A stretch of DNA of 64,000 nt from Gammaproteobacteria bacterium (GCA_036567985.1 DATCTK010000089.1:29375-93374), one strand, 5' to 3'; positions 3,109-39,233 are shown, numbered from the stretch's first letter. Program-made: numbers and translations. The notes: a model not told the origin generated them from the sequence alone.

Positions 3109-3339
3109 CTACTTATTGATTTTCAATAGCCGTTTCAGCTCAACTTCATCTGGCTGTCCCCTGCACACCACTTCGTTATCCACCATCAGATTGGGCGAGT
3201 GACGAATATGGTAGCGCGACACAGTCTCCGGATGGTCCTCTGCGAACAAAACTTCATAGGCGACACCCAGATCCTTCAGTTCCTTTTCCATACTGGATCG
3301 ATGGCTACAATTTCGAGTTGCGATAATTTTAACGTTCAT
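3109..3339 (-). CDS. small glutaredoxin/thioredoxin-fold-like protein with a CxxS motif
   Basis: 76 aa, N-terminal KIIATRNCSHRS. The size and pattern resemble glutaredoxin-like proteins. No close family was recognised. Confidence 0.35.
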   Translation of the reverse strand: MNVKIIATRNCSHRSSMEKELKDLGVAYEVLFAEDHPETVSRYHIRHSPNLMVDNEVVCRGQPDEVELKRLLKINK

Positions 3340-3379
3340 AATTATTCCTCACATAAGATGTACAAATAGAAAAGTGGCA

Positions 3380-3820
3380 TCACTGATCAATCACAGGTTT
3401 GCTTTGCAGCTGTAATGCCGACATGTTCGATGACGCTCCCTGGTAAAGCACATCGATGACACGTCCGTCGTCGTCGAACACCAGAGTGTAAGTCCGCTCG
3501 AAATCCGCTAGCGGGCTCTCTATCACTGTTTTCTTTTCACCGCTGGGCGTCACATAGGTTTTAAGTGTGCGATGTTTACTCATGCCGTAGACCCAGCCTT
3601 CGCGACCGTTGGCCAGGCGAACTTCTTTATCTGCCTTGCCGTGATGACTCATCACCGCAAGTTTTTTGAGACTGCCTAGCGGATAGGTTTTTAGCACCTG
3701 TTCGGGGCTGGCTTCATAGGTAAACCGCATGGGCATTTTCATACCATCGGCCATTAGCGACAGTGAGCACAGCATGGTGAGCATGCCGGACAGAAATAAA
3801 ACACCTGTTTTGTTAAACAT
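3380..3820 (-). CDS. hypothetical periplasmic protein (signal peptide)
   Basis: 146 aa with an N-terminal hydrophobic signal-like segment. No recognisable catalytic motif. Confidence 0.4.
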   Translation of the reverse strand: MFNKTGVLFLSGMLTMLCSLSLMADGMKMPMRFTYEASPEQVLKTYPLGSLKKLAVMSHHGKADKEVRLANGREGWVYGMSKHRTLKTYVTPSGEKKTVIESPLADFERTYTLVFDDDGRVIDVLYQGASSNMSALQLQSKPVIDQ

Positions 3821-3888
3821 GATTACATATCCTCATTAGATATTAATAACCGAGAAGACCGGGTCGTGAAGACCCGGACACCAGTGGT

Positions 3889-4371
3889 TTACTTCTTTTC
3901 AAGCTGTTCCATATGCTTGAGCATCTGCTGCATCATGTCCTGCATCATGCCCATGCGCTTTTCCATCATGGCACTGCGATCCGACATGCCACCCATCATC
4001 ATTCCGCCCTGTCCTTTGCCCATGCCCATTCCGTGGCTATCACCCTTGCCATCACTCTGGATCTTGGACATCGTGCCTTTATTATCCATCATCATGCCCT
4101 TGCCATCGGGATTCGGCATCATGCCACGCATTTTTTCCATCATACCCATCATGTCTTTCATGCTTTGCATATGATTATTCATATACTGTTTTTTCTTGCT
4201 GCTGTTATTCTCCTTTTGCATTTTCATTGCCATATCTTCGGCTTTTTCCATCTGCATATTGAACTTGTCGCCCATCATTTTCATATCACCCATATTCTGT
4301 TGAGCATAGACGCTGGTTATGGATGCAGTAGCCAGAAGCAGTGTGGTTACTAATATATATTTTTTCATCAT
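3889..4371 (-). CDS. methionine-rich periplasmic protein, a candidate Cu(I)-binding protein
   Basis: 160 aa. Signal peptide, then many MxxM / MMG / MGMGKGQGGMMMGG motifs. RBS GGAGAC lies upstream. It sits in the copper island. Confidence 0.6.
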   Translation of the reverse strand: MMKKYILVTTLLLATASITSVYAQQNMGDMKMMGDKFNMQMEKAEDMAMKMQKENNSSKKKQYMNNHMQSMKDMMGMMEKMRGMMPNPDGKGMMMDNKGTMSKIQSDGKGDSHGMGMGKGQGGMMMGGMSDRSAMMEKRMGMMQDMMQQMLKHMEQLEKK

Positions 4372-4560
4372 TAAGTCTCCTGTGAAATGTTGATTTAAAA
4401 CTCATGTGGCTCTAAACAATTCATCCATAAATTCTCAGAGCAGGAACAGAAACAGGATAAATTTCTATTTACCCTGTTATTTATTTTCAATGAATCATGC
4501 ATCATCGAAAATAGCGTCACATCTATGTGTCACAACATGCCTTATGTAATCAGTAATTCC

Positions 4561-4833
4561 TTAATTACTGTTTTGTAAAAACGTCAGAATATCCCGTGTC
4601 TCCTGCCCGGTGAGGCCACCGCGCACACGCATATGAAACACAGTAGTGATCCATTGATCGTCACGTAATTCATTTGAATCACGTAAATTATGACAACGCA
4701 TACAGTTATCAGACCAGGCTTTGGCGCCTCGCGCCATATCACCCTGCTCGGGAAAGTCCCCTCCCATCGCAGTCGTGCTGATTAACAAAAAGCCAATGGT
4801 TGCTGTATATATTTCTGGAAATATTTTTTTCAT
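4561..4833 (-). CDS. small c-type cytochrome
   Basis: 90 aa with a signal peptide and a CMRCH haem-binding motif. Confidence 0.6.
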   Translation of the reverse strand: MKKIFPEIYTATIGFLLISTTAMGGDFPEQGDMARGAKAWSDNCMRCHNLRDSNELRDDQWITTVFHMRVRGGLTGQETRDILTFLQNSN

Positions 4834-4844
4834 AGCAATTACTC

Positions 4845-6020
4845 CTAAAATCCGTAGCTAAGTTGTACTAGCCAGCGGTCATCACTTTCCAGGCCAGAGT
4901 TGGGGTTATCATTACTTTCGTAAGCCAGCTTGCCTATAAAATTATTGGTAAACAGCCGATTCAGGCCCAGTGTCAAATGCTCCTGATCCGCACTGGCATG
5001 AGGCGAATCAAATTCACCAGTACGTATCACGGCCTCGTAGTCATCATTGAAAAATTTGTAGGCCAGCTGAAGATACCAGGTCGACCATTCAGCGGCATCC
5101 GATGCATTACTGGTTGCTGCTTCAGCAACCTCGGTTTTTACATATTCACCGCGAACGTCCAACATCGTATTTCGCCAGGAAAAATCCATCCCATTAACAT
5201 CATAATCACGGGTTGGCTCATTGCTTAATGACGGACCCTCTACACCTTCGTACTCAGTTACTCTGGCCTGGCCGGTTAAGAGTGATACACCGATTTCAAG
5301 TGTCGAAATCGGCAGTACCGAAAAGCGTCCGCCGACGACTTTTTCACCGTCCCTGTCACGTCCAAATGCTTCAGCCTCTACACCGTCCAGCTCTACTTCA
5401 CCGTCTTCGACCTCGGCTTTCAACTCAGGACCGTTACCCATGTAGATCGCATAAGTGGCTTTCATGCTACCCAGATAAAAACCACCACGGGCTTGCACAC
5501 CCAGGTCAGATACCGGCGCTGCACCGTCATGACCAAACCCAGCTGGTGCTGATGGCAATTTGTTTATCCAGCACGGATGCAAGTTTTGTCTAAACTGACC
5601 TATTGGGCTTAAAAACTTACCAGCCACCAGCACCAGATAGTCATTTACAAACCAGTCAAGGGTCAGATATTCCAGTGCCGTTTCTGTCTCACCGTCTTCA
5701 CTCGTTGTCAGCTCAAGCTCCGATTCCAGCATCACCAAATCACGGTACTGATAATGAAAAATTGGCGCGAATGTACCCACATTAAAACTGCCATCATCTC
5801 CGCTGGCATCACTATTCACATAGCCCACATCAGCGTAGCCAGCCATGTGAATCAGTGTATTTGGATCACGCCATTCATTTGCTGCAGCCATTTCTGTTTT
5901 GAGTCGTTCAACGTCCTGTTTCAACTGCTCCAGCTCACTTGCTGCAAATCCTGTCGAATTCACGGACATAAGTGACAGCGAACACATTGTCGCCAGATAT
6001 AGTTTTTTTGATTTTTTCAT
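4845..6020 (-). CDS. outer-membrane beta-barrel, porin-like protein
   Basis: 391 aa. Signal peptide, alternating amphipathic segments and a C-terminal ...LSYGF aromatic terminus typical of OMPs. Confidence 0.55.
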   Translation of the reverse strand: MKKSKKLYLATMCSLSLMSVNSTGFAASELEQLKQDVERLKTEMAAANEWRDPNTLIHMAGYADVGYVNSDASGDDGSFNVGTFAPIFHYQYRDLVMLESELELTTSEDGETETALEYLTLDWFVNDYLVLVAGKFLSPIGQFRQNLHPCWINKLPSAPAGFGHDGAAPVSDLGVQARGGFYLGSMKATYAIYMGNGPELKAEVEDGEVELDGVEAEAFGRDRDGEKVVGGRFSVLPISTLEIGVSLLTGQARVTEYEGVEGPSLSNEPTRDYDVNGMDFSWRNTMLDVRGEYVKTEVAEAATSNASDAAEWSTWYLQLAYKFFNDDYEAVIRTGEFDSPHASADQEHLTLGLNRLFTNNFIGKLAYESNDNPNSGLESDDRWLVQLSYGF

Positions 6021-6273
6021 GAGTTATTCCTCATATTTACATTTGGTAATATTTGTAACGCTAGTGAACCGCCGCGCACTACTAAATCCGGTACGCAGGA
6101 GATAGGAGGTCGCAGGATAGAAACTGGAGTCGGTGAATCATGACGCTGATGCACGAACGGAATACTGAAAGAAATCATATTACCTGAGAAGTCAAAAACG
6201 TTAACAGGTGGAACAAGCATACTATGCAGCATGTCGCAGGATTCGCTGCTGCTATCACAACAGCACTGTTTAT

Positions 6274-6657: not shown

Positions 6658-9600
6658 TCACGCTTTTAGTGAACGTGTACGCCACAGAAAATACACCGCT
6701 GGCAACACCAGCAACGTCAGAATCACTGCGCTCAACATTCCACCCACCATCGGCGCCGCGATGCGGCTCATCACCTCAGACCCGGTACCGCTGCCGAACA
6801 TAATCGGTAGCAAACCAGCAATAATGGCACTGGCGGTCATCATCACTGGACGTACGCGCATACCCGCACCGTGCAGCACTGCATGGCGTAACGTTTCCAG
6901 CTTCGGCGCAACACCTTTCGTTTCGTATTCGGATTGCATCTGAGCATAAGCCTGGTTGAGATAAACCAGCATGATCACGCCGATCTCTACCGCCACACCG
7001 GCCAGCGCGATAAAGCCCACGCCCACCGCCACCGAGAAGTTGTAGCCAAGCAGGTACATCAGCCAGATGGCACCGATCATTGCCAGTGGCAAGGTGCCCA
7101 TGATGATGGCGACTTCAGCAAACCGGCGAAAGTTCATGTAGAGCAGCACAATAATGATGACCAGTGTCAGTGGCACCACATAGGTGAGCTTTTCTTTAGC
7201 TCGCAACATGTATTCGTACTGACCGGACCAGGTCACGGAATAGCCTGTTGGGAGTTCCAGTTGCTGTTTGACTGTTATCATGGCCTGCTCGACATAACTG
7301 CCCACATCTACGCCGTCAATATCAACAAAGGTCCAGCCGTTCAGTCGGGCGTTCTCACTCTTGATGGCCGGTGGACCGCCATCCACATAAACATTTGCCA
7401 CGTCGTCGAGCGCAATACGCTGCCCTTTTGGCGTAACGATGGGCAACAATGCCAGCTGTTCCGGAGAGTCACGGTAATCCTGTGGGTAACGCAGATTGAT
7501 TGGATAACGCTCAAGCCCCTCAATGGTCTGCGATACGTTCATACCGCCAATAGCCGTGGCCACCACCTGCTGCACATCGGCGATATTAAGGCCATAACGC
7601 GCCGCCTGTTCACGCTGTACATCCACCTTAATGTAGCGCCCACCGGCTACCCGTTCAGAATAAACCGAGGCCGTGCCGGGTACATCCTTAAGAATCTGTT
7701 CCAGTCGCTGACCAATTTTCTGAATTTCTTGCAGATCCTCACCCGCCACCTTGATACCCACCGGGGTCTTGATACCGGTAGCCAGCATGTCGATACGGGT
7801 TTTAATCGGCATCACCCATGCATTGGTCAGGCCGGGAAATTTCACCAGTGCATCCAGTTCCTTTTTAAGCTTGTCGGTGGTCATGCCATCGCGCCACTGG
7901 TCCTGTGGCTTAAGTTGAATAAACGTCTCTATCATGGTCAGTGGTGCCGGGTCGGTGGCTGTTTCGGCGCGACCAATCTTGCCGAACACGGTTTTTACTT
8001 CTGGCACCGTAGCAATCAGTTTGTCAGTCTGTTGCAGAAGCTCACGCGCCTTACCAATGGACAGACCCGGGTAGGTGGTGGGCATGTACATCAGGTCGCC
8101 TTCATCCAGACTGGGGATAAACTCACTACCGATCTTGTCCACCGGCCAGAAGCCTGCCAGTGTCAGCACCAATGCAACGACCAGGGCCATTTTAGGAAAG
8201 CGCAACACTGTTTTCAGTGCAGGCATGTAGAGCCCAATCAACAGACGATTGACAGGGTTTTTGTGTTCTGGCAGCACCTTGCCGCGAATGAAATAGCCCA
8301 TCAACACCGGCACCAGCGTCACCGCCAGTGCCGCACTTGCTGCCATGGCATAGGTTTTGGTAAACGCGAGCGGACTGAACATCCGACCTTCCTGCGCTTC
8401 CAGCGTGAACACCGGCACGAAGCTGACGGTGATAATCAGCAAACTGAAGAACAGCGCCGGCCCGACTTCCGCCGCCGATTCGGCGACAATCCTCCAGCGG
8501 TTTTCCGCCGTCAATGGCGTACGCTCCATGTGCTTGTGCATGTTCTCGATCATCACGATGGCACCATCGATCATCGCGCCGATGGCAATCGCAATACCAC
8601 CCAGTGACATGATATTGGCATTCAGGCCCTGCCAGTGCATCACAATAAAGGCAGTCAGAATACCCACCGGCAGACTGATAATCGCCACCAGTGACGAACG
8701 TATGTGAAACAGAAACACCATGCATACCAGCGCCACCACTGCGAACTCTTCCAGCAACTTGTGCCACAGGTTTTCCACCGCACGCTCGATCAATCCAGAT
8801 CGATCATAGACGGTGACGATTTCCACGCCCTCAGGTAAACCTGCCTTGAGTTTTTCCAGTTTGTTCTTAACACCATCAATGGTTCTCTGCGCATTCTCAC
8901 CAAAGCGCATCACCACGATACCGCCAACGGTTTCACCTTCACCATTAAGTTCGGCAATACCGCGACGCATCTGCGGCCCCAGTTCAATCTCTGCCAGATC
9001 CTTGAGCAACAAGGGAATACCATTGTCATTCACACCCAGGGGAATGTTGGCCAGGTCGTCAATGCCCTGAATATAACCACTGACCCGTACCATGTACTCG
9101 GCTTCCGCCATTTCCACTACCGAAGCACCCATTTCCTGGTTACCGCGCTGGATCGCCATCTGAATATGCGAGAGAGGAACACCGAACGCACGCAGTTTTT
9201 CCGGGTTCACTTTCACCTGATACTGCTTGACCATGCCGCCGAGCGCCGAGACTTCGGAAACCCCGGGTACTGTCTGCAGCTCGTATTTCAGGAACCAGTC
9301 CTGCAGACTGCGCAGCTGGCTGATGTCATGCTTGCCGGTACGGTCCACCAGTGCGTAGAGATAGACCCAACCCACACCCGTGGCATCCGGCCCCAGTTGT
9401 GGCCGGGCACTGGGCGGCAACGTGGGGGCCACCTGTGACAGGTATTCCAGCACCCGCGAACGCGCCCAGTAGGTGTCGGTATTCTCATCGAATATGACGT
9501 ACACATAGGAATCCCCGAAGAAGGAGTAGCCGCGCACGGTAACCGCACCCGGCACCGACAACATGGCAGTAGTCAGTGGATAGGTAACCTGATCTTCCAC

Positions 9601-9780
9601 CACCTGTGGCGCCTGTCCCGGATAGCTGGTTTTAATAATCACCTGTACATCGGACAGGTCGGGAAGCGCATCCACCGGCGTATTTTTCAGGGAATAAAGA
9701 CCAACGCCCACCAGCAGCAGGGTGGCCAGCAGCACGAAAAAGCGGTTAGCGATGGACCAGCGGATCAACGACTCAATCAT
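6658..9780 (-). CDS. cusA: CusA/CzcA-family heavy-metal efflux RND permease
   Basis: About 1040 aa from the likely start MIESLIRWSIANRFF (ATG at 9778-9780), which overlaps the cusB stop by 8 nt. 12-TM RND architecture and typical HME-RND conserved blocks. Confidence 0.92.
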   Translation of the reverse strand: MIESLIRWSIANRFFVLLATLLLVGVGLYSLKNTPVDALPDLSDVQVIIKTSYPGQAPQVVEDQVTYPLTTAMLSVPGAVTVRGYSFFGDSYVYVIFDENTDTYWARSRVLEYLSQVAPTLPPSARPQLGPDATGVGWVYLYALVDRTGKHDISQLRSLQDWFLKYELQTVPGVSEVSALGGMVKQYQVKVNPEKLRAFGVPLSHIQMAIQRGNQEMGASVVEMAEAEYMVRVSGYIQGIDDLANIPLGVNDNGIPLLLKDLAEIELGPQMRRGIAELNGEGETVGGIVVMRFGENAQRTIDGVKNKLEKLKAGLPEGVEIVTVYDRSGLIERAVENLWHKLLEEFAVVALVCMVFLFHIRSSLVAIISLPVGILTAFIVMHWQGLNANIMSLGGIAIAIGAMIDGAIVMIENMHKHMERTPLTAENRWRIVAESAAEVGPALFFSLLIITVSFVPVFTLEAQEGRMFSPLAFTKTYAMAASAALAVTLVPVLMGYFIRGKVLPEHKNPVNRLLIGLYMPALKTVLRFPKMALVVALVLTLAGFWPVDKIGSEFIPSLDEGDLMYMPTTYPGLSIGKARELLQQTDKLIATVPEVKTVFGKIGRAETATDPAPLTMIETFIQLKPQDQWRDGMTTDKLKKELDALVKFPGLTNAWVMPIKTRIDMLATGIKTPVGIKVAGEDLQEIQKIGQRLEQILKDVPGTASVYSERVAGGRYIKVDVQREQAARYGLNIADVQQVVATAIGGMNVSQTIEGLERYPINLRYPQDYRDSPEQLALLPIVTPKGQRIALDDVANVYVDGGPPAIKSENARLNGWTFVDIDGVDVGSYVEQAMITVKQQLELPTGYSVTWSGQYEYMLRAKEKLTYVVPLTLVIIIVLLYMNFRRFAEVAIIMGTLPLAMIGAIWLMYLLGYNFSVAVGVGFIALAGVAVEIGVIMLVYLNQAYAQMQSEYETKGVAPKLETLRHAVLHGAGMRVRPVMMTASAIIAGLLPIMFGSGTGSEVMSRIAAPMVGGMLSAVILTLLVLPAVYFLWRTRSLKA

Positions 9781-11401
9781 GCTGATGCTCCTGCTGAGGA
9801 CTGTCGGGGCGCATACCATTAGGGTCGTTTTGCTCCGGCATTAACATCGCATCGTGGTTCATCCCATCACGCTGACTGTGATCCATTTCAGCCGGCATGG
9901 CATCGTCAGCTGACTCCTGATCCGGGATATGCACCTGGGTCAGCTGGTAATTTCCGTCACTGTCCCTGCTGATCTGCACATGCAGGCGCATTCCCGCTTT
10001 GAGTGCGTCCATGTCCACGCCCTCATCAACAGTAAAGTCCATGGTCATCGCCGGCCACTGCCAGTCTGCTATCGCCTCGTGCTCAAGCGTAACCATGCGA
10101 TGCCCCGGCATCAGCTCATTGATTTGCGCACCCACCCAGACTGAACGCGGGCCAGCGTCTGCTCCCGCAGCGCTCGATTTTTCGCCTTGCGAGCCACGCG
10201 GGGCCATACGCTTGAAGTCCGACGTCTTGCTGGACTCCGAGTCGATCAGGAACTGTGCAGAGGTCACAATGCGTTCCCCCTCGTTGAGGCCCGAGCGGAT
10301 TTCCACCTGATCCTCACCCACGCGCCCGATCTTTACCGCCAGCGATTTAAATTGACCATCACCCAGCGCCAGCACTACCCGCGACTGGCTGCCGGTACGA
10401 ATCAATGCTTCGCGTGGTATTAACAGCGCTTTATCCCCCGGCCGGGTTTCAATAATCATCTGCGCGAACATACCCGGCTTCAGAAAAGCATCCGGATTAT
10501 CAAAATACACACGAACCTGCGCGGTGCGGGTCTTCTCGTTTAACGACGGATAGATATAATTCACCTCTCCCTGCCATTCACGGCCGGGCAGATAATCCAG
10601 CCACATGCGCACCTTATCGCCTTCTCTGACCCGATCCACCTGACGCTCGAAGACTTCTCCGATCACCCAGATGTGTTCCAGCTGCCCAATGCTCATCATA
10701 TTCATGCCAGGCTTAACATACATGCCCTCACGAACCGTGAGATTGTCCACTACCCCCGAACGGGGTGCGGCAACGGTGATGGTCTGATTAACTTTGCGGG
10801 TTTTGCGTAAGCGCTCGATATCCGCCCGCGGTACTTGCAGCGACAACAGGCGTTCCACCGCCGCGCTAATTAGCAAAGCATTGCCGCGCTTCAAGGCCAA
10901 CAGTAATTCCTCCTGGGCATTGACCAGAGTGGGTGAATAGAGTGCGTACAACGGCTTCCCCTGCGTCACCGGATCACCCACCGATTTGACGTAGAGTTTT
11001 TCAATCCAGCCTTCCACCCTGGGATGCATGTGAGTCAGGCGGTCTTCATCGTACTGCACATAGCCTACGGTTTTGACATCAAGGTCGAGCCGTCCAGATT
11101 CCACCCTGGCGGTGCGAACACCGAGATTGTTGATGACCTCGGGCGAGATTTTAACGGTACCGACTTCATCATTCCCGGCACCGTCCGCATAAACCGGAAT
11201 CAGGTCCATGCCCATGGGCGATTTGCCGGGTTCATCGCGCTGGTAGTTGGGATCCATAGGTGCCACCCAGTAAAGCGGCTTGCGTTCACCGCCGTTTGCT
11301 GTCGCGCCCTGTTCATTTGAGCTGCTCAACAACCAGACAGCGGATGCGCCGAGCAGCGCACCAATAGCCACGCCCAGTATAGTTTTGCTCAATGTATTCA
11401 T
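9773..11401 (-). CDS. cusB: RND periplasmic adaptor (CusB/SilB-like) with a C-terminal CusF-like metallochaperone domain
   Basis: 542 aa. The MFP core runs up to ...QFLIDSESS. A ~150-aa extension follows with VWVGAQINELMPGHRMVTLEHEAIADWQWPAMTMDFTV (CusF-like H/M/M/W pattern) and a His/Met-rich tail. Confidence 0.85.
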   Translation of the reverse strand: MNTLSKTILGVAIGALLGASAVWLLSSSNEQGATANGGERKPLYWVAPMDPNYQRDEPGKSPMGMDLIPVYADGAGNDEVGTVKISPEVINNLGVRTARVESGRLDLDVKTVGYVQYDEDRLTHMHPRVEGWIEKLYVKSVGDPVTQGKPLYALYSPTLVNAQEELLLALKRGNALLISAAVERLLSLQVPRADIERLRKTRKVNQTITVAAPRSGVVDNLTVREGMYVKPGMNMMSIGQLEHIWVIGEVFERQVDRVREGDKVRMWLDYLPGREWQGEVNYIYPSLNEKTRTAQVRVYFDNPDAFLKPGMFAQMIIETRPGDKALLIPREALIRTGSQSRVVLALGDGQFKSLAVKIGRVGEDQVEIRSGLNEGERIVTSAQFLIDSESSKTSDFKRMAPRGSQGEKSSAAGADAGPRSVWVGAQINELMPGHRMVTLEHEAIADWQWPAMTMDFTVDEGVDMDALKAGMRLHVQISRDSDGNYQLTQVHIPDQESADDAMPAEMDHSQRDGMNHDAMLMPEQNDPNGMRPDSPQQEHQHD

Positions 11402-11413
11402 ACTTGAATTCCT

Positions 11414-12754
11414 TTAAAACGTTTCTACCGACTGCGCATCGTCAGGCGATACCTGGGCAAGCAGGTAATTGATCTGAGAAATAATTTTCTGTCGCTCCAC
11501 GGCGATATCAAGCGCATCAATTTTGGCATTCAACTCGGCAATACGCGCCCTCACAGCTTCAGCGAAGTCGCCGTCGTCATTGTTGTATGCTGTCAGTGAT
11601 GCGCTTGCCTGCTCCACCATCTGTGGCAGCAGCTGCTCGGTATAAAGTATCTGGCGCTCTTCCAGACGTTCCAGTTGTACACGCGCGGTTTCCAGTTCTG
11701 CCATCAACTGGCGGGCAAGCAACTGCTTTTCTGTTTTGATGACTTCGCTTCGGTTAACGGCGGCACTCACTTCCCTGTCCTGCCGGTTAGCGGTGAAAAC
11801 GGGCAAATCAAACGTCACACCAATAGAAAACAGATCGGCTCTGTCTCGCCCCAGTGGATCACTGTCGCGGTAGCCGTATTGAGCTGTCAGGCCCCATTCG
11901 GGTTTGTATTTCTGCTTCGCCAGATCAACGCCGGTTTCCGTTGCGTCGATACGCTGATCCAGTGCGCGCAAAGCGGGATGATGGCGGATTGATTCATATA
12001 AATTTTGCGTGCTGGCTGTTTCAGTGGATGGAGATGTCAACGATCTCACAGGAGAGATCGTTGGCAAAACTGGTGCGATGGTTGTTGTGGCAGGCGCTCC
12101 AATCCATTCAGACAGACGTTGCTGTGCAGACTGCTGTTTTTGCCTGAGCACTGTCAGGCGATCAGACAGCCGAGTCAGCTCGAGCTGCGCACGGATCACA
12201 TCATGCTGGCGCACTCGGCCCAGCGCCGATGAATAACTGGCTTCGGTGACGTCCACCAGTTGTTCGAAAAGGACACGATCCTGCTCGATCAGCCGGATAG
12301 TTTCCTGTGCCTTATAGGCTTCGAGCCACAACTGGGTGACCGTGGCGGTTACGCGGGCGCGACGGTTCATTCGCAGCAGAGGATGCTGCTCTGCAAGCTG
12401 CCGCTTTTGTTGCTGAGTGAGCGACAGGCTGTCACCCCGGGGGAACATCTGTGAGATACCTACCGATAACTGGGTCATGGCTTCCTGGTTGATATCGAAA
12501 GTGTCTACCGGAAAATTACCAGCCATCAGACTTATTCGTGGATCAGGTAAAGTCGCTGCAGCGCTCGCCTCATCAGTAAGCGCCTGCTGGGTATACTGGC
12601 TACCGCTAAGCCAGGGATCGGCATGCGTGGCTAAAGTGACTGCCTGTTCCAGAGTCAGGACTTCAGGAAGAGATTGTGCAACGGCCACTGCACTGCCCAT
12701 AGTAAGCAGCGGGGTGAGCGGCAGAATAAAAAACATTGTGATGAAAATTCTCAT
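11414..12754 (-). CDS. cusC: outer-membrane factor (TolC/CusC family) of the RND efflux system
   Basis: 446 aa. Signal peptide, OMF-type repeats. It overlaps the downstream cusB operon and the upstream copG by ATGA. Confidence 0.85.
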   Translation of the reverse strand: MRIFITMFFILPLTPLLTMGSAVAVAQSLPEVLTLEQAVTLATHADPWLSGSQYTQQALTDEASAAATLPDPRISLMAGNFPVDTFDINQEAMTQLSVGISQMFPRGDSLSLTQQQKRQLAEQHPLLRMNRRARVTATVTQLWLEAYKAQETIRLIEQDRVLFEQLVDVTEASYSSALGRVRQHDVIRAQLELTRLSDRLTVLRQKQQSAQQRLSEWIGAPATTTIAPVLPTISPVRSLTSPSTETASTQNLYESIRHHPALRALDQRIDATETGVDLAKQKYKPEWGLTAQYGYRDSDPLGRDRADLFSIGVTFDLPVFTANRQDREVSAAVNRSEVIKTEKQLLARQLMAELETARVQLERLEERQILYTEQLLPQMVEQASASLTAYNNDDGDFAEAVRARIAELNAKIDALDIAVERQKIISQINYLLAQVSPDDAQSVETF

Positions 12755-30908: not shown

Positions 30909-31892
30909 ATGAAACTGATAGAAGTCATTGCCAACGAAGAAACAACTGAAACCGTATCCGACATTGCCAAACGTAATGCCGCACTGGATTTCAGGCTGGC
31001 ACAAAAACTGGACGATGGACGCCAGGCGATGCGCATTTTATTACAGGATGAAAATGTGCAAGCCACGCTGGATGGTCTGCAGGCGATAATCAGCAGTCAG
31101 CCCAAAGCCCGACTGATCGTGTTTCCGGTGGAAGCCGCCCTGCCACTGCCCAATAAAACCACAACAGCGAAAAAATCTGCCAGCGCCACCTCCAGAGAGG
31201 CGCTGTATGATGCAGTCTCCAAAAATGCCGTACTGGATTCGAATTTTATCGTGCTGGTGATCCTCTCCACCCTGGTGGCGGCGATTGGACTGATCAAGGA
31301 CAATGTCGCAGTGGTCATCGGCGCAATGGTCATTGCACCCTTACTGGGGCCAAACCTGGCGCTGGCACTGGGCACAGCGCTGGGGGATCTGCAGCTGATT
31401 CGCAAATCGATTGTCACCAACCTGGCGGGCATGGCACTTACCGTGGTGCTGTCGATTATCCTCGGTGTACTCTGGCCGTTTGCCATCCACAGTCACGAAC
31501 TGATGTCGCGCACCGATGTGGGGCTCGACTCACTGGCGCTGGCGCTGGCCTCGGGCGCAGCAGCAGCGCTGTCGCTCAGCACCGGTCTGTCCAGTGTACT
31601 GGTGGGAGTGATGGTGGCGGTAGCCCTGTTACCCCCGGCGGCCACCTTCGGCCTGATGCTGGGTCATGGCGAGGTGCAACTGGCGCTGGGCGCGCTGTTA
31701 CTGCTAGCCGCCAACGTGGTGTGCGTTAACCTGGCCACCAAGGTGGTGTTTATGGTCAAGGGCATCAGCCCGCGCACCTGGTTTATGAAAGAAAAAGCGC
31801 GGCGCCGCATGTATATTTATATTGCCCTGTGGCTGTTCAGCCTGCTGGTGCTGGCGGTGGTGATTTATCTGCGTGGCAATATGCAGGGCTAA
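30909..31892 (+). CDS. DUF389 / TIGR00341-type membrane protein
   Basis: 327 aa. Soluble N-terminal region, then a multi-TM glycine-rich C-terminus. A family guess from overall architecture. Confidence 0.45.
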   Translation: MKLIEVIANEETTETVSDIAKRNAALDFRLAQKLDDGRQAMRILLQDENVQATLDGLQAIISSQPKARLIVFPVEAALPLPNKTTTAKKSASATSREALYDAVSKNAVLDSNFIVLVILSTLVAAIGLIKDNVAVVIGAMVIAPLLGPNLALALGTALGDLQLIRKSIVTNLAGMALTVVLSIILGVLWPFAIHSHELMSRTDVGLDSLALALASGAAAALSLSTGLSSVLVGVMVAVALLPPAATFGLMLGHGEVQLALGALLLLAANVVCVNLATKVVFMVKGISPRTWFMKEKARRRMYIYIALWLFSLLVLAVVIYLRGNMQG

Positions 31893-32054
31893 ATTCCCTG
31901 CAGAACTGAACCGCCTTGTGAAAATTGATTTATGTGGATGTTTGAAGTTTTCTGGCCGTTCAATTTGCATTAGTCAAGGATCCATCGGATCTTGTGCAGC
32001 ATGGCTTGCTCTATAGCATTCTTGACAATCAACTCAACTGTCTTATCTAAGGAA

Positions 32055-32087
32055 GCTCTGAATAATTCATCCATGAATTATCAGAGC
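32055..32087. repeat. 33-bp near-palindromic core of a ~90-bp intergenic element. A paralogous copy lies at 4409-4441.
   Basis: GCTCTGAATAATTCATCCATGAATTATCAGAGC here, against GCTCTAAACAATTCATCCATAAATTCTCAGAGC at 4409-4441. Similarity extends ~60 bp further (AGAGCA..AACA.A..CA..AT.AAA ... TTTTCAAT). Confidence 0.7.
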
Positions 32088-32230
32088 AAAAACAAATCAA
32101 AATGCGATTTCGATTTGTTTTTAATTTTCAATAACTTAACAGTTATTGAAAATGGCGGCACATCCCTGTGCCGCGGAACCTCTGAGTTTTTCAGAGGTTC
32201 CCTAAATTTTCCTTCACGATATTTTTAACT

Positions 32231-32682
32231 GTGCTTTTTCGCCTTTCTGGCGACTCACTTCTTTTTCTGCAGCAAAAAAGAAGTAAGCAAGAAAATGCCG
32301 TTCCCGGTCACTTGCCCGCAAAAGGCGGCGGGTTCCCGAAAATGCTGTGAGACGGTATTTTGTTTTGGATAAGCTTATTGATTGAACTGTCTTCGTTGCC
32401 GGGTCGTGCTGGAGTGCCATCCAGGCACATCATCACTCAAAATCACGTCCTGTGATTTTGCCCCTGCGTAGAAAGCATTTTCGGCAAGTGACAGGGAAGT
32501 TTGTCGCAAGACCTTCGTTTGAAAAGCAATTTGACCGTTCGGTATGGAGCTGTTTCCCCTTCGCACAAGCTGATGAGCGAGTGATTTTTGTGGAGGCTGT
32601 ATTCCGGACGTCCTGCCCTTCACCCTTCGGGCCAGGGATGGCTTTCGTAAAGAAGTAAGTCGCCAGAAAGACGAAATAGCAC
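32231..32682. repeat. ~450-bp segment bounded by 34-bp imperfect terminal inverted repeats. It is MITE-like or a structured RNA.
   Basis: Left arm GTGCTTTTTCGCCTTTCTGGCGACTCACTTCTTT (32231-32264). Reverse complement of the right arm (32649-32682): GTGCTATTTCGTCTTTCTGGCGACTTACTTCTTT, 31 of 34 identical. The interior has only short unconvincing ORFs and a 9-bp-stem hairpin at 32436-32458. Two strong hairpins lie just outside at 32157-32206. Confidence 0.5.
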
Positions 32683-34647: not shown

Positions 34648-37600
34648 CTATTGCAAACGCTTTAACTCATACTGTTTCATTAACAGAAACACCGCAGGCA
34701 ACACCACCAGTGTTAGCAGTGTGGCACTGACCATGCCCCCCACCATGGGCGCGGCGATACGCCGCATCACCTCGGAGCCGGTACCACTGCCCAGCATAAT
34801 CGGCAGCAGACCGGCAATGGTGGCAAACACCGTCATCAGTATGGGGCGCACCCGTAGCAGCGCACCGTCAATCACCGCTTCGCGCAGCTCCTGCAGACTG
34901 ACCTCACGTTTTTGCTGTATCGCCAGTTGCTGTTTTTCAGCATAAGCCTGGTTCAGGTACACCAGCATCACCACACCGATTTCAACCGCGGTGCCCGCCA
35001 GTGCGATAAAGCCCACGCCCACCGCCACCGACAGGTTATAGCCCAGTAGATACAGCAGCCAGAAACCACCCGCCAGAGCCAGCGGCAGGGTTCCCATAAT
35101 CAGTGCCACCTCAGAAACATTTCTGAAGTTCATATACAGTAACAACAGGATGATACCCAGGGTCACCGGCACCACCGCCGATAAGCGCTGTTTGGCGCGG
35201 AGCATATACTCATACTGCCCCGACCAGGCAATCGAATAACCCGCCGGCAGTTCCAGCTGCTCAGCTACCACGCGCTGCGCGTTGGCCACGTAGCTTCCCA
35301 GGTCACGGTCGCGGATATCCACAAACACCCAGCCATTGGGGCGGGCATTTTCACTTTTGATCATCGCGGGCCCCATCTCCAGCTGGATGCTGGCGACACT
35401 GCCCAGCGCAATGCTGGCGCCATCGGGGGTCACCACCGGCAGGTTTTCCAGCTTCTGCAATGAGTCCCGCAGATCACGGGGGTAGCGTATATTGACCGGA
35501 TAGCGCTCCAGCCCTTCCACCGACTCGGTGATATTCATGCCCCCCAGTGCACTGCCGATCACATCGTGGACATCGGCTATGTTCAGGCCGAAGCGTGCGG
35601 CGGCGCGACGGTCCACATCCATGGTGATATAGCGTCCTGCCGCCACCCGTTCTGCATAGGCAGAGGCCGTACCCGGCACCTGTTTAATCAGTTCTTCCAG
35701 GCGCTTGCCAATGTCCTGTATCACCGCCAGATCCGGCCCCGCAATTTTGATACCCACCGGCGTCTTTATACCGGTTGCGAGCATATCGATACGGGTTTTG
35801 ATCGGCATCACCCAGGCATTGGTGAGGCCGGGAAAACGAATCAGCTGATTCAGTTCCTGTTTGAGCTTTTCCGTGGTCATACCCTCACGCCACTCGCTTT
35901 TCGGCTTGAGCTGTACCGTGGTTTCAATCATGGTCAGTGGTGCAGGGTCAGTCGCGGTATCGGCGCGACCGATCTTGCCGAATACGGTTTTGACTTCCGG
36001 CACGGTTTTAATCAGCTTGTCGGTCTGCTGCAATAGTTCCTGCGCTTTACCGATAGAGAGCCCGGGATAGGTGGTGGGCATATACATTAAATCGCCCTCG
36101 TCCATATCCGGCATAAACTCCGAACCCAGCTGGGATAATGGCCACAGGGAAACAAGCACAAACAAGGCCGCTAGCAATGTGACGCTGACAGGCGCACGCA
36201 ACACCAGATTAATAAACGGTGCATAAATGGCTTTTAACAGCCGGTTTATCGGGTTTTTATGTTCAGCGATAATTCTGCCACGAATAAAATAGCCCATGAG
36301 CACCGGCACCAGGGTGATTGCCAGACCAGCCGCGGCTGCCATGGCAAAGGTTTTGGTATAGGCCAGCGGCGCAAATAGTTTTCCTTCCTGTGCCTCCAGG
36401 GTAAACACCGGCATAAAACTCAGGGTAATAATCATCAACGAATAGAAAATCGGTTTACCCACTTCGCTGGCGGAGTCCGCCACCAGTTGCCAGCGCTGTT
36501 TGCTGCTGAGCTGGCCGTGCTTTTCTGTGGCCCGTTCAATATGCTTGTGCATATTTTCGATCATCACAATCGCCGCATCCACCATTACACCCACCGCGAT
36601 GGCAATACCCCCCAGCGACATGATATTGGCATTCATCTGCTGCGTGTGCATGATAATAAACGCACTGAGAATACCCAGTGGCAATGACAACACCAGCACC
36701 AGTGAACTGCGGAAATGAAACAGAAATACCGCGCAGATCAACGCGACAATTATAAATTCTTCCAGCAACTTGCTGCTTAAATTATCCACCGCCCGTTCGA
36801 TTAACTGCGAACGGTTATAGGTTTCGATGATCTCCACCCCATCGGGCAGGCTTTTTTTCAGGCTTTGCAGTTTTTCTTTTACATTGGCGATAGTCTGTAA
36901 GGCATTTTCACCGTAACGCATCACCACCACTGCACCGGCTACTTCACCTTCGCCATCCAGTTCGGCAATACCGCGACGCATTTGCGGCCCCACTCGAATA
37001 TGCGCCACATCCTTTAGCAGCAGCGGCGAACCGGCGTGATTGATTCCCAGCGGAATCTGTTGCAGGTCGTCAATCGACTGAATATAACCGGTGGCGCGCA
37101 CCATATATTCCGCTTCCGCCATTTCGATCACCGAACCACCGGTTTCCTGGTTAGCGGACTTGATCGCATTTTTAATTCGTCCGATCGTGAGGCCATAGGC
37201 ACGCAGTGCATTGGGCTGCAATACCACCTGGTACTGTTTAACCATGCCACCGATGCTGGCCACTTCCGCCACGCCGGGTACGGCCTGCAATTCAAATTTC
37301 AGAAACCAGTCCTGCAATGATCGCAGCTGGGCCAAATCATGTTTGCCAGTCCGATCCACCAGTGCATATTCATACACCCAGCCCACACCGGTGGCATCCG
37401 GCCCCAGGCTGGACCGCGCACCTTCAGGGAAACCGCTGGTGACCTGGCTCAGGTATTCCAGTACACGGGAACGTGCCCAGTAGGGATCTGTGCCGTCTTC
37501 GAAAATCACATACACATAGGAATCACCAAAAAAGGAATAGCCGCGCACATTGGTGGCTTTGGGTACAGATAACATGGAGCTGGTGAGTGGATAGGTGATC

Positions 37601-37791
37601 TGGTCTTCCACTACCCGCGGCGCCTGCCCCGGGTAGCTGGTTTTTATAATCACCTGCACATCGGATAAATCGGGAATCGCATCCAGCGGCGTGTTTTTAA
37701 CTGAATAGATGCCCCAGCCGGTGAGCATAATCGCCAGCAATATCACGATCAGGCGGTTTTTAATCGACCAGTCAATGATCGCGGCAATCAT
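34648..37791 (-). CDS. cusA: second CusA/CzcA-family heavy-metal efflux RND permease (paralog)
   Basis: 1047 aa. Highly similar to the 6658-9780 product (e.g. [21 protein letters not shown] identical). It overlaps the upstream cusB-like gene by ATGA. Confidence 0.92.
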   Translation of the reverse strand: [1047 protein letters not shown]

Positions 37792-39233
37792 TGTGCTGTC
37801 TCCTGCGCCTGCTCATTCTGCTTTTGTTCAGTCGGAGCCTGCATGCGGTTTAAACTGGCCTTGAGCCCGGCTTCTGAATCGATCAGAAACTGCGCCGAGG
37901 TCACCACGCGTTCGCCTTCGCGCACACCGGATTTAATCTCGATCCATTCACCGGATTCCAGCCCGGTCACCACCTGCCGCGCCTGGTAACGCCCTTCATC
38001 GGTTTTAATAATCAGCCGTTGCTGATTGCCACTGCGGATCACCGCTTCACGGGGCACACTCAATACATTGTCTAGTGCACCGGCATAGATCACCACATTG
38101 GCGTACATATTGGGCTTGAGTTGTTCCTCGGGGTTAGCAAACTGCAGTCGCACCTGCAGACTGCGGGTTGCCTGGTTCAATACCGGGTAAATATGATCAA
38201 CGCTGCCCTGCCAGATTTTTCCCGGCTGATACAGCAGGCTGACTTCCGCGCTCTGCTGTTTCTGCACCCAGTCACTCTGCCCTTCAAACACATCCGCCAG
38301 CACCCAGACACTGGACAGGTCCGCCAGCGTCATCACCTGGGTCTGCGGCTGCAGGTACATACCTTCACGCACATTCAACATGGTGACCACACCGTCCTGC
38401 GGTGCATGGATACTGATGGTTTGCGGCACCCGGCGTGTGGATGAAAGCTGTTTTATCTGTGATTCACTCACACCCAGCGCGCGCAGTTTTCCCTGCGCGG
38501 CGTCAGTTAATCGCTGATTGCTGGAGCGCAATGTCTGCACATATTCCGCCATGGCATTTACCAGTTCCGGCGAATAGACATCGAACAATCGCTGACCTTT
38601 TTTAACCCGGTCACCTTCGATATTCACCGCGAGGTTTTCAATCCAGCCATCCACGCGTAAATGAATATGACTCACCCTGGATTCATCCAGTGTCACATAA
38701 CCCACGGTGCTGATTTTGCGCCACAATTTTCCCGACTCGACTAGCTGGGTACGCACGCCAAGGTTGTGTTCCACTTCAGGTGAAATACGCACCCCGTCAG
38801 CTGTGGCTGTATTGTCTTCTGCATACACCGGCACCAGGTCCATGCCCATGGGCGACTTGCCCGGCTGGTCACGGCGGTAACTGTCATCCATGGGCGCGAC
38901 CCAGTAGAGAATTTGCTTTTCTGTCGATGCTTTATCGCTGTGTTCAGGCTCATTCATATCTGATTCAATCGGCACCAGGCCCATGCCGCAAATGGGACAA
39001 TTACCCGGCTCGTCTCGAATCACATCCGGGTGCATCGGACACTGGTAATCCGCATCCAGGTGTTTTGCACTGTGCTCCAGTGCAGATTCGTTTTCCAGGG
39101 TGCTTGCCGATTTTGAGAATAACCAGCTCACTGTAAAGCCTGCGGCAATTAACAGCAGAATCAGCAGCAAAATCAAAACCAGCCGACTCTGTTTATTAAA
39201 ACGGTGAATCCCCTGTTTATCAGTAGCAGCCAT
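37788..39233 (-). CDS. cusB: RND periplasmic adaptor (CusB-like) with an N-terminal CPMHP...CPICGM heavy-metal-binding domain
   Basis: 481 aa. A TM/signal segment, then YQCPMHPDVIRDEPGNCPICGMGLVPI (the same module as the CopA N-terminal repeats), then the MFP core. No CusF-like tail. Confidence 0.85.
   Translation of the reverse strand: MAATDKQGIHRFNKQSRLVLILLLILLLIAAGFTVSWLFSKSASTLENESALEHSAKHLDADYQCPMHPDVIRDEPGNCPICGMGLVPIESDMNEPEHSDKASTEKQILYWVAPMDDSYRRDQPGKSPMGMDLVPVYAEDNTATADGVRISPEVEHNLGVRTQLVESGKLWRKISTVGYVTLDESRVSHIHLRVDGWIENLAVNIEGDRVKKGQRLFDVYSPELVNAMAEYVQTLRSSNQRLTDAAQGKLRALGVSESQIKQLSSTRRVPQTISIHAPQDGVVTMLNVREGMYLQPQTQVMTLADLSSVWVLADVFEGQSDWVQKQQSAEVSLLYQPGKIWQGSVDHIYPVLNQATRSLQVRLQFANPEEQLKPNMYANVVIYAGALDNVLSVPREAVIRSGNQQRLIIKTDEGRYQARQVVTGLESGEWIEIKSGVREGERVVTSAQFLIDSEAGLKASLNRMQAPTEQKQNEQAQETAQ

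Follow-up and report, generated by a model that had tools for sequence, protein, structure and literature searches.

The Correia elements of Neisseria (CREE/NEMIS) are MITEs, about 100-155 bp long, that have inverted ends and a target containing TA. They occur in hundreds of copies near genes, are often co-transcribed, form stable RNA hairpins and exist in shorter variants that carry internal deletions. The BOX elements of Streptococcus pneumoniae and the BIMEs of enterobacteria are modular, with a variable number of hairpins between conserved end modules, and they have neither target-site duplications nor ends that resemble those of IS5. In E. coli IS5 (IS5 group of the IS5 family) the terminal repeat begins GGAAG....GAATAA and a 4-bp YTAR duplication is made at the target, while TwoAYGGAY (RF01731) and CsrB/RsmZ-type RNAs present A-Y/N-GGA-U loops on one strand. 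The repeat described here, which occurs twice in a stretch of 64,000 nucleotides of gammaproteobacterial DNA (the window), shares features with each of these. By analogy, its habits would most resemble those of the Correia elements, given its size, its proximity to genes, its co-transcription and its shorter variants; however, the sequences are unrelated, the carrier taxon is different, and in Correia elements the duplication is a 2-bp TA and the fold a single long hairpin instead of five local ones. With BOX and BIMEs it has the modular build in common. It has the terminal repeat and the 4-bp duplication of IS5, but it is only ~151 bp long, lacks a transposase gene and has an interior of four extra hairpins. 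Like the TwoAYGGAY and CsrB/RsmZ-type RNAs it carries two A-Y/N-GGA-U loops on one strand (hairpins 1 and 4), but the Rfam model of TwoAYGGAY gives no match on the element, which is mobile and has no preference for strand or orientation. We infer that it operates like an IS5-derived MITE. While an element of this kind is ordinary, the repeat family itself seems to be undescribed.

An earlier note on this DNA had drawn attention to two related 33-bp near-palindromes at 4409-4441 and 32055-32087. The two 33-mers are indeed identical at 28 of 33 positions, and both are hyphenated palindromes, that of the second copy being perfect except for one bulged A. The looser similarity downstream, put at ~60 bp, is real and had been drawn too short, since the two loci align over ~155 bp in all (4406-4562 versus 32049-32203). 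In a global pairwise alignment, 117 of 173 columns are identical, and as the note had anticipated the two loci outscore shuffled controls (alignment score of 51 versus -12.4 +/- 5.8). A profile HMM (nhmmer) trained on 38 full foreign copies gives matches at exactly two places in the window, which share one orientation: copy 2 with E = 5e-40 and copy 1 with E = 9e-17. The 33-bp palindrome is hairpin 1 of an element of ~151 bp that is made of five consecutive hairpins. Both loci are very probably copies of a non-coding MITE of this length, with five hairpins and IS5-type ends.

The anatomy of the element is best read from copy 2, which is intact (GGAAGCTCTGAAT ... TCAGAGGTTCC; 32051-32201, plus strand, as delimited by nhmmer, folding and blastn) and measures 151 bp between the ends of its terminal inverted repeats, with hairpins occupying every part. 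Hairpin 1 (32055-32087) is the 33-bp palindrome, whose 5' arm continues the left terminal repeat. Folding and pair counts define hairpin 2 (AAAAACAAATC...GATTTGTTTTT; 32088-32122) and hairpin 3 (ATTTTCAATAACT...AGTTATTGAAAAT; 32124-32153). These are followed by hairpin 4 (GCGGCACA-TCCC-TGTGCCGC, or CACAGGGAUGUG on the reverse strand; 32155-32174) and hairpin 5 (GGAACCTCTGA-GTTTT-TCAGAGGTTCC; 32175-32201), the 3' arm of which is the right terminal repeat. These last two are the strong hairpins that had been described as lying next to copy 2; they are present, not as neighbours but as parts of the element itself. Copy 2 folds at -75 kcal/mol on the plus strand and at -82 kcal/mol on the minus strand, with a z of about -12 on either. 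Among the copies, the consensus for hairpin 1 is TTAA followed by GGAAGCTCTGAAT-AATTCATCCATGAATT-ATCAGAGC, that for hairpin 2 is CGCCAAACAAAAA..TTTTTGTTTGGC, for hairpin 3 CATTTTCAATGA..TCATTGAAAATG, for hairpin 4 TTGGCACA-TCCA-TGTGCCAA, and for hairpin 5 GGAAACTCTGAAT-AA-ATCAGAGTTTCC followed by TTAA. Shorter derivatives, consisting of hairpin 1 alone, hairpin 5 alone or hairpins 1, 4 and 5, retain the GGAA...TTCC ends, as would be expected if deletions had occurred between the internal direct repeats CTCTGAAT or ATCAGAG.

Some copies are longer, with blocks of 30-160 bp inserted at fixed positions: in the loop of hairpin 4 (between ACAT and CCATGT), in the loop of hairpin 5, or between hairpins 1 and 2. 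Such blocks occur in one assembly, JADFMY01, at nine loci (L015, L030, L035, L069, L082, L091, L033, L049 and L090) and elsewhere at L031 and L057 (both JBBDSJ01), L064 and L079. The blocks are made up of additional hairpins whose loops read ACAAGGATGT or ACATGGATGT, the GGA of hairpins 1 and 4 being on the other strand. Either the MITE is itself a target of still smaller hairpin modules, or it is growing by module gain.

The terminal inverted repeats are the outer arms of hairpins 1 and 5 (GGAAGCTCTGAATAA and its complement). In the consensus of the copies, the left end (GGAAGCTCTGAATAATTC) agrees with the reverse complement of the right end (GGAAACTCTGATTTATTC) at 15 of 18 positions, and GGAAGCTCTGAATAA equals the ends of E. 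coli IS5A, read from NC_000913 (GGAAGGTGCGAATAAG and GGAAGGTGCGAACAAG), at 12 of the first 15 bases. Copy 2 is flanked by CTAA on the left (32047-32050) and, as a direct and non-palindromic repeat read from the sequence, on the right (32202-32205). Among 66 parsed copies, the 4-mers just outside GGAA...TTCC are identical in 23, compared with 6.6 +/- 2.1 after shuffling (maximum 15), and they are one base apart in another 20, perfect identity thus being found in only about a third. Thirteen of the identical pairs are non-palindromic (CTAA, TTAG, ATAG, TTAT) and an inverted-only relation is seen in none of the copies, so the 4-mers are direct target-site duplications rather than a continuation of the inverted repeat. 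The target duplication of IS5 is 4 bp long with the motif 5'-(C/T)TA(A/G)-3' (YTAR) (PMC5009759). In 17 of the 23 copies the duplication is CTAA, TTAA, TTAG or CTAG, and in 3 more it is ATAG. No autonomous IS with the same ends was found by regular expression in the window or in ~0.7 Mb of retrieved locus DNA, where the search for additional terminal repeats returned solo hairpin-5-like units only, and no InsH-like transposase was found by tblastn with E. coli InsH in either. Thus, what links the element to IS5 is the likeness of its ends and the pattern of its duplications, from which we hold, with moderate to high confidence, that the element is an IS5-type MITE moved by a putative transposase of that kind. 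It is possible to picture how this would work: an IS5-group DDE transposase, supplied in trans, would recognise the ends of the element and paste it into YTAR-type sites, with 4 bp duplicated. Since such sites contain TAA or TAG, insertions would often come to lie on or just past a stop codon.

The distribution of the family is that of a dispersed repeat. When a 23-mer from the core (AATTCATCCATNAATTNTCAGAG) was scanned against one genome per species of bacteria and archaea, at least 116 loci in at least 30 assemblies were found. Among the matches listed, all are metagenome-assembled genomes of uncultured Gammaproteobacteria, with labels that include Wenzhouxiangellaceae, Lysobacterales, Thiotrichales/Thiothrix and Acidiferrobacteraceae. 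The profile gives at least 150 matches in these loci, with up to at least 30 per assembly. One locus (L016 from JBFFND01, a mud MAG) comes from the window's own organism (99.85% identity across 2.7 kb), and in a blastn comparison of the window with the 115 foreign loci similarity is confined to the element, at about 32043-32209. Many MAG contigs terminate within a copy, as expected of a repeat that breaks assemblies. The 23-mer had no match in viral contigs, and a blastn search of 3300-6100 against a plasmid collection gave only a 65-bp coding match. Rfam had no match at gathering threshold anywhere in the window, and around copy 2, with E up to 10, the element drew only chance-level matches to unrelated families. 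The core 16-mer was not found in any paper of the collection searched, and a keyword search of the literature for a similar IS5-type MITE returned nothing relevant.

The position of the copies relative to genes, for which ORFs were called crudely in all loci, is uneven in one respect and random in another. An ORF is overlapped by more than 40 nt in 7 of the 87 copies checked, the others lying between ORFs. Where the 3' end of a gene faces a copy, the distance between them is -16 to +10 nt in 43 of 76 cases, compared with 1 of 72 for gene 5' ends, and this clustering at stop codons agrees with a target in which TAA or TAG is present. The four arrangements of flanking genes with respect to element orientation occur 26, 19, 18 and 17 times, that is, at random, and this lack of orientation bias makes a general cis-regulatory role unlikely.

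Copy 2 lies between a convergent DUF389 gene (30909-31892, plus strand) and a PDC/Cache-sensor gene (33702-32749, minus strand), and it is probably an intact insertion of fairly recent date in the region where these genes converge. In a relative whose PDC-sensor protein is 93% identical (L127), the same two genes are separated by 138 bp, as opposed to 856 bp in the window, and the element is absent, so that the MITE and an adjacent stretch of ~440 bp bounded by inverted repeats represent extra DNA in the window. The spacer of L127 is too divergent to give a base-exact empty site; the empty allele of copy 2 would be expected to read ...TTATCTAA joined to ATTTTCC..., with a single CTAA. The idea that copy 2 drives an unannotated small RNA finds no footing here, given that there is no promoter-like site and no Rfam match at copy 2 and that the L127 spacer is so much shorter.

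The adjacent stretch (32236-32680) has 33-bp inverted arms at ~32236-32268 and 32645-32680 (GTGCTTTTTCGCCTTTCTGGCGACTCACTTCTTT and its near-complement), which occur nowhere else in the window or in 129 loci. On the minus strand it forms one closed fold (-187 kcal/mol, z = -5.5) with roughly eight GGA motifs, counted by eye. A match to TwoAYGGAY (RF01731) at 32363-32486 on the minus strand, outside the element, is below threshold (35.6 bits versus a gathering score of 43) and was not recovered in relatives. The stretch is missing from L127, though ~60 nt of its core may be shared. It could be another non-autonomous element or a Csr/Rsm-like small RNA. In two further relatives, with a sensor protein that is 95% identical, a different sequence that includes a GTGCATGGATGCAC hairpin lies downstream of the PDC-sensor gene (L125:4070-4134 and L126:3172-3236; the contigs end there), indicating that this intergenic region is hypervariable between strains.

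Copy 1 (~4405-4560 by nhmmer, plus strand), of which hairpin 1 is at 4409-4441, is an old and decayed copy in the same orientation as copy 2, located between two minus-strand genes of one copper/silver-resistance operon. Its right edge is marked by TTAA at 4561-4564, and positions 4561-4563, read on the minus strand, form the TAA stop codon of a cytochrome-c-like ORF (4561-4833). The left terminal repeat has been lost (TGTGG instead of GGAAG), as has the duplication; hairpins 1 to 3 are well kept and hairpins 4 and 5 are degraded. On the sense strand of the operon copy 1 folds at -54 kcal/mol (z = -4.2). With its left repeat and duplication gone, the status of copy 1 as an insertion rests on comparison with related operons. 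The order of genes on the minus strand is cusA (9819-6658), a 165-residue gene that is called only in relatives, a porin gene (6020-4845) and the cytochrome-c-like gene (4833-4561), and after copy 1 come a Met-rich gene (4371-3889) and the genes for a 146-aa protein, a thioredoxin-like protein and the CopA ATPase. In a related operon with a porin that is 74% identical (L123), the cytochrome-c-like gene is followed by a 22-bp spacer and then by a Met-rich homologue (42% identical, E = 4e-24). In another with a porin that is 70% identical (L122), a 32-bp spacer precedes the Met-rich homologue (44% identical over the N-terminus). These spacers hold only ...CACAGGAG..., with the ribosome-binding site as it stands in the window 3' of the element, and the element profile had no match in L122, L123 or L127. 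Together, these three loci provide comparative empty sites for the two copies at 70-93% protein identity, and the related operons without the element identify copy 1 as an insertion within an operon and not an operator. A decayed copy is present at the equivalent place in a closer relative (L120, porin 83% identical; the contig ends within it), indicating that the insertion is old and inherited. Copy 1 entered the operon long ago, between the cytochrome-c-like stop codon and the ribosome-binding site that serves the Met-rich gene, and it is now decaying. Its place inside the operon makes transcription within the operon mRNA most likely, and there its hairpins would act as passive structure only, for instance by terminating transcription in part, by serving as a processing site or by forming a stability barrier.

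The Met-rich protein (3889-4371, minus strand) has 160 residues, a signal peptide and runs such as MGMMEKMRGMM and MMMGGM. It has no Pfam family above threshold, and a look-up of the exact protein returned no record. Homologues are encoded at L123:3657-4163 and L122:5035-5496, and in several uncultured Gammaproteobacteria the gene adjoins those for a porin, a small cytochrome-c-like protein, a thioredoxin-like protein and CopA. The protein probably binds Cu(I)/Ag(I) in the periplasm and belongs to a family not yet described. In the gene for the CopA-type ATPase, an 80-bp direct repeat (2546-2625 and 2657-2736, 84% identical and 111 bp apart) in the N-terminal region encodes a duplicated motif starting YTCPMHPEI(I/V), and a third copy, 66% identical, lies at 38971-39050 inside an ORF (37788-39233) of a second efflux cluster. 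The two paralogous cusA-type RND efflux operons (6658-12754 and 34648-39233) are ~28.0 kb apart and share 72-78% DNA identity over long stretches. Each MITE copy lies ~2.1-2.4 kb below one of the cusA paralogues; this spacing looks like a coincidence, as the intervening genes differ and the flanks are unrelated.

A feature of the family that calls for an explanation is the conservation of base pairing. The five-hairpin structure, with 57 pairs, was taken from single-sequence folds and tested by pair counts; RNAalifold on a MAFFT alignment overlooked hairpins 3 and 5. In 58 copies, 90.9% of the cells are paired (80.2% after shuffling), and with one copy for each of 24 assemblies the value is 90.5% (81.3% after shuffling). 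Cells changed on both sides number 316 in the 58 copies (104.5 shuffled) and 118 in the 24 assemblies (39 shuffled), and when the partner is slid by 1-3 columns pairing drops to 34-46% and 35-43%, respectively. All seven pairs of the outer stem of hairpin 2 show changes on both sides across copies. Hairpin 3 provides the clearest case, its TTTT...AAAA being flipped to AAAA...TTTT in 10 of the 24 assemblies (flipped form AAAATCAATG...CATCGATTTT). The near-constancy of hairpin 1 is an ascertainment effect, as this hairpin is mostly fixed by the search pattern. Most of the variation falls between genome-specific subfamilies, and the pairing constraint seems to act on lineages of active source copies. 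With one sequence per assembly, cells compatible with G.U pairing number 46 on the plus strand and 52 on the reverse strand (p = 0.61). An apparent preference for the reverse strand in the full set (136 A.C versus 63 G.T) was due to pseudo-replication and a misaligned column, and it was gone when one sequence per assembly was used. Such strand-neutral pairing fits a constraint on the palindromes at the level of DNA (including mutational palindrome correction) or use in either orientation, and it does not point to an RNA in particular. The compensatory pairing of the four internal hairpins is left unexplained by a cut-and-paste DDE mechanism, and four other accounts of the hairpins, or of the element as a whole, have to be weighed against the reading as an IS5-type MITE.

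One of these is that the hairpins terminate transcription or insulate genes, which would be why the element is tolerated where genes end. Indeed, copy 2 has terminator-like sites on both strands (32175-32201 on the plus strand and 32174-32155 on the minus strand), copies reside at stop codons and between convergent genes, and the folds are very stable. However, the U-tract after the G+C-rich stem is not constant and is gone in the subfamily with hairpin 3 flipped to AAAA, and the excess of sites detected in a terminator scan is modest (3 versus 1.0 +/- 1.1 expected). Moreover, copy 1 sits inside an operon with four more genes downstream, where a strong terminator would be harmful. We therefore regard this account as unlikely.

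A second possibility is that the mobile element carries a functional RNA module, in which hairpins 1 and 4 on the reverse strand would present A-N-GGA loops as putative CsrA/RsmA sites or as a sponge. The loop of hairpin 4 contains an invariant TCC (24 of 24 assemblies), followed by a base that is free to vary. Read on the reverse strand, the hairpin carries ACA-N-GGA-UGU, with ACA in 23 of 24, GGA in 24 of 24 and UGU in 21 of 24 assemblies, while the stem co-varies; hairpin 4 lies outside the search pattern. This matches the core of the SELEX consensus of CsrA, RUACARGGAUGU, whose ACA and GGA do not vary and whose GGA lies in a hairpin loop (PMC4347634). Variant loops of hairpin 1 also retain GGA (e.g. 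CCAGGATGG and CAGGGATG), and CsrA has been suggested to bind the AYGGAY hairpins of the TwoAYGGAY RNA (PMC4333381). Hairpin 1 of copy 1 precedes the Shine-Dalgarno sequence of the Met-rich gene by ~25 nt and could bring this gene under Csr control. Yet the orientation of the element relative to genes is random, and its wobble pairs are as strand-neutral as described above, with no preference for the strand that bears the motif. Furthermore, the accessory hairpins in the loops of hairpins 4 or 5 in two assemblies bear ACAAGGATGT, with GGA on the opposite strand; CANGGATG occurs in the window no more often than expected (12 versus 12.6), and hairpin 4 of copy 1 has lost its GGA (TAGA). On balance, an RNA module of this type is quite unlikely. 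Taken one step further, the MITE would spread candidate CsrA/RsmA hairpins (ACA-N-GGA-UGU in hairpin 4 and UCA-U-GGA-UGA in hairpin 1) among uncultured sediment Gammaproteobacteria, such that insertions near ribosome-binding sites might recruit genes to the Csr/Rsm regulon or transcribed copies might titrate CsrA. This extension we consider very unlikely.

A third account holds that the element is a REP/BIME-type repeat, composed of palindromic units multiplied through single-stranded DNA hairpins by a RAYT (a Y1 tyrosine transposase) and not by a DDE enzyme. The earlier note had allowed for a dispersed, REP-like repeat, and the dispersal is evident, with dozens of copies per genome in random orientation. 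The copies are intergenic and numerous, with hairpin modules, variable module content and extra hairpins in loops, as in REP/BIME arrays and BOX, and covariation of the stems without strand preference suits a constraint on DNA hairpins. To our knowledge, though, REPs make neither direct flanking repeats nor terminal inverted repeats of the sort seen here, whereas the copies have 4-bp direct flanking repeats and terminal inverted repeats of 15-18 bp. In addition, the alignment contains no conserved GTAG at the 5' end of the hairpins, and the ends of the element resemble those of IS5. It is thus highly improbable that a RAYT multiplied this element, and the REP-like label gives way to that of a MITE with inverted ends and flanking duplications.

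Finally, the proposal that a dimeric metal-responsive repressor binds the 33-bp palindrome over a promoter of the Met-rich gene, with a second operator at 32055, can practically be dismissed: while the palindrome is nearly perfect and stands directly upstream of a gene of the copper/silver-resistance cluster, it is a module of a dispersed element that adjoins unrelated genes in at least 30 assemblies and in all four gene arrangements, it always occurs within a 151-bp unit with inverted ends and flanking duplications, the 22-32 bp spacers of the related L122 and L123 operons lack the element and leave no room for a promoter or operator, no minus-strand gene lies downstream of copy 2, and the suggested -35/-10 pair (TTGTTT-16-TAAATC), though it exists on the minus strand, matches TTGACA and TATAAT at only 3 of 6 positions each and was not flagged by a promoter scan.

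The interpretation as an IS5-type MITE frees the annotation of the window from a false lead, in that there is neither a metal-repressor operator nor a hidden promoter of a small RNA at either copy. The Met-rich gene is best read as a member of the operon that runs from cusA via the porin and cytochrome-c-like genes to copA. What remains puzzling is that a cut-and-paste MITE keeps five separate hairpins by compensatory change, one of them with an invariant CsrA-like loop. If the element did spread CsrA/RsmA hairpins, the compensatory upkeep of its hairpins would reflect selection on a CsrA-related RNA role. More generally, the repeat family is common to at least 30 uncultured gammaproteobacterial assemblies, in which it fragments metagenome assemblies; it marks stop codons, and it may be used as a marker of recent insertion activity.
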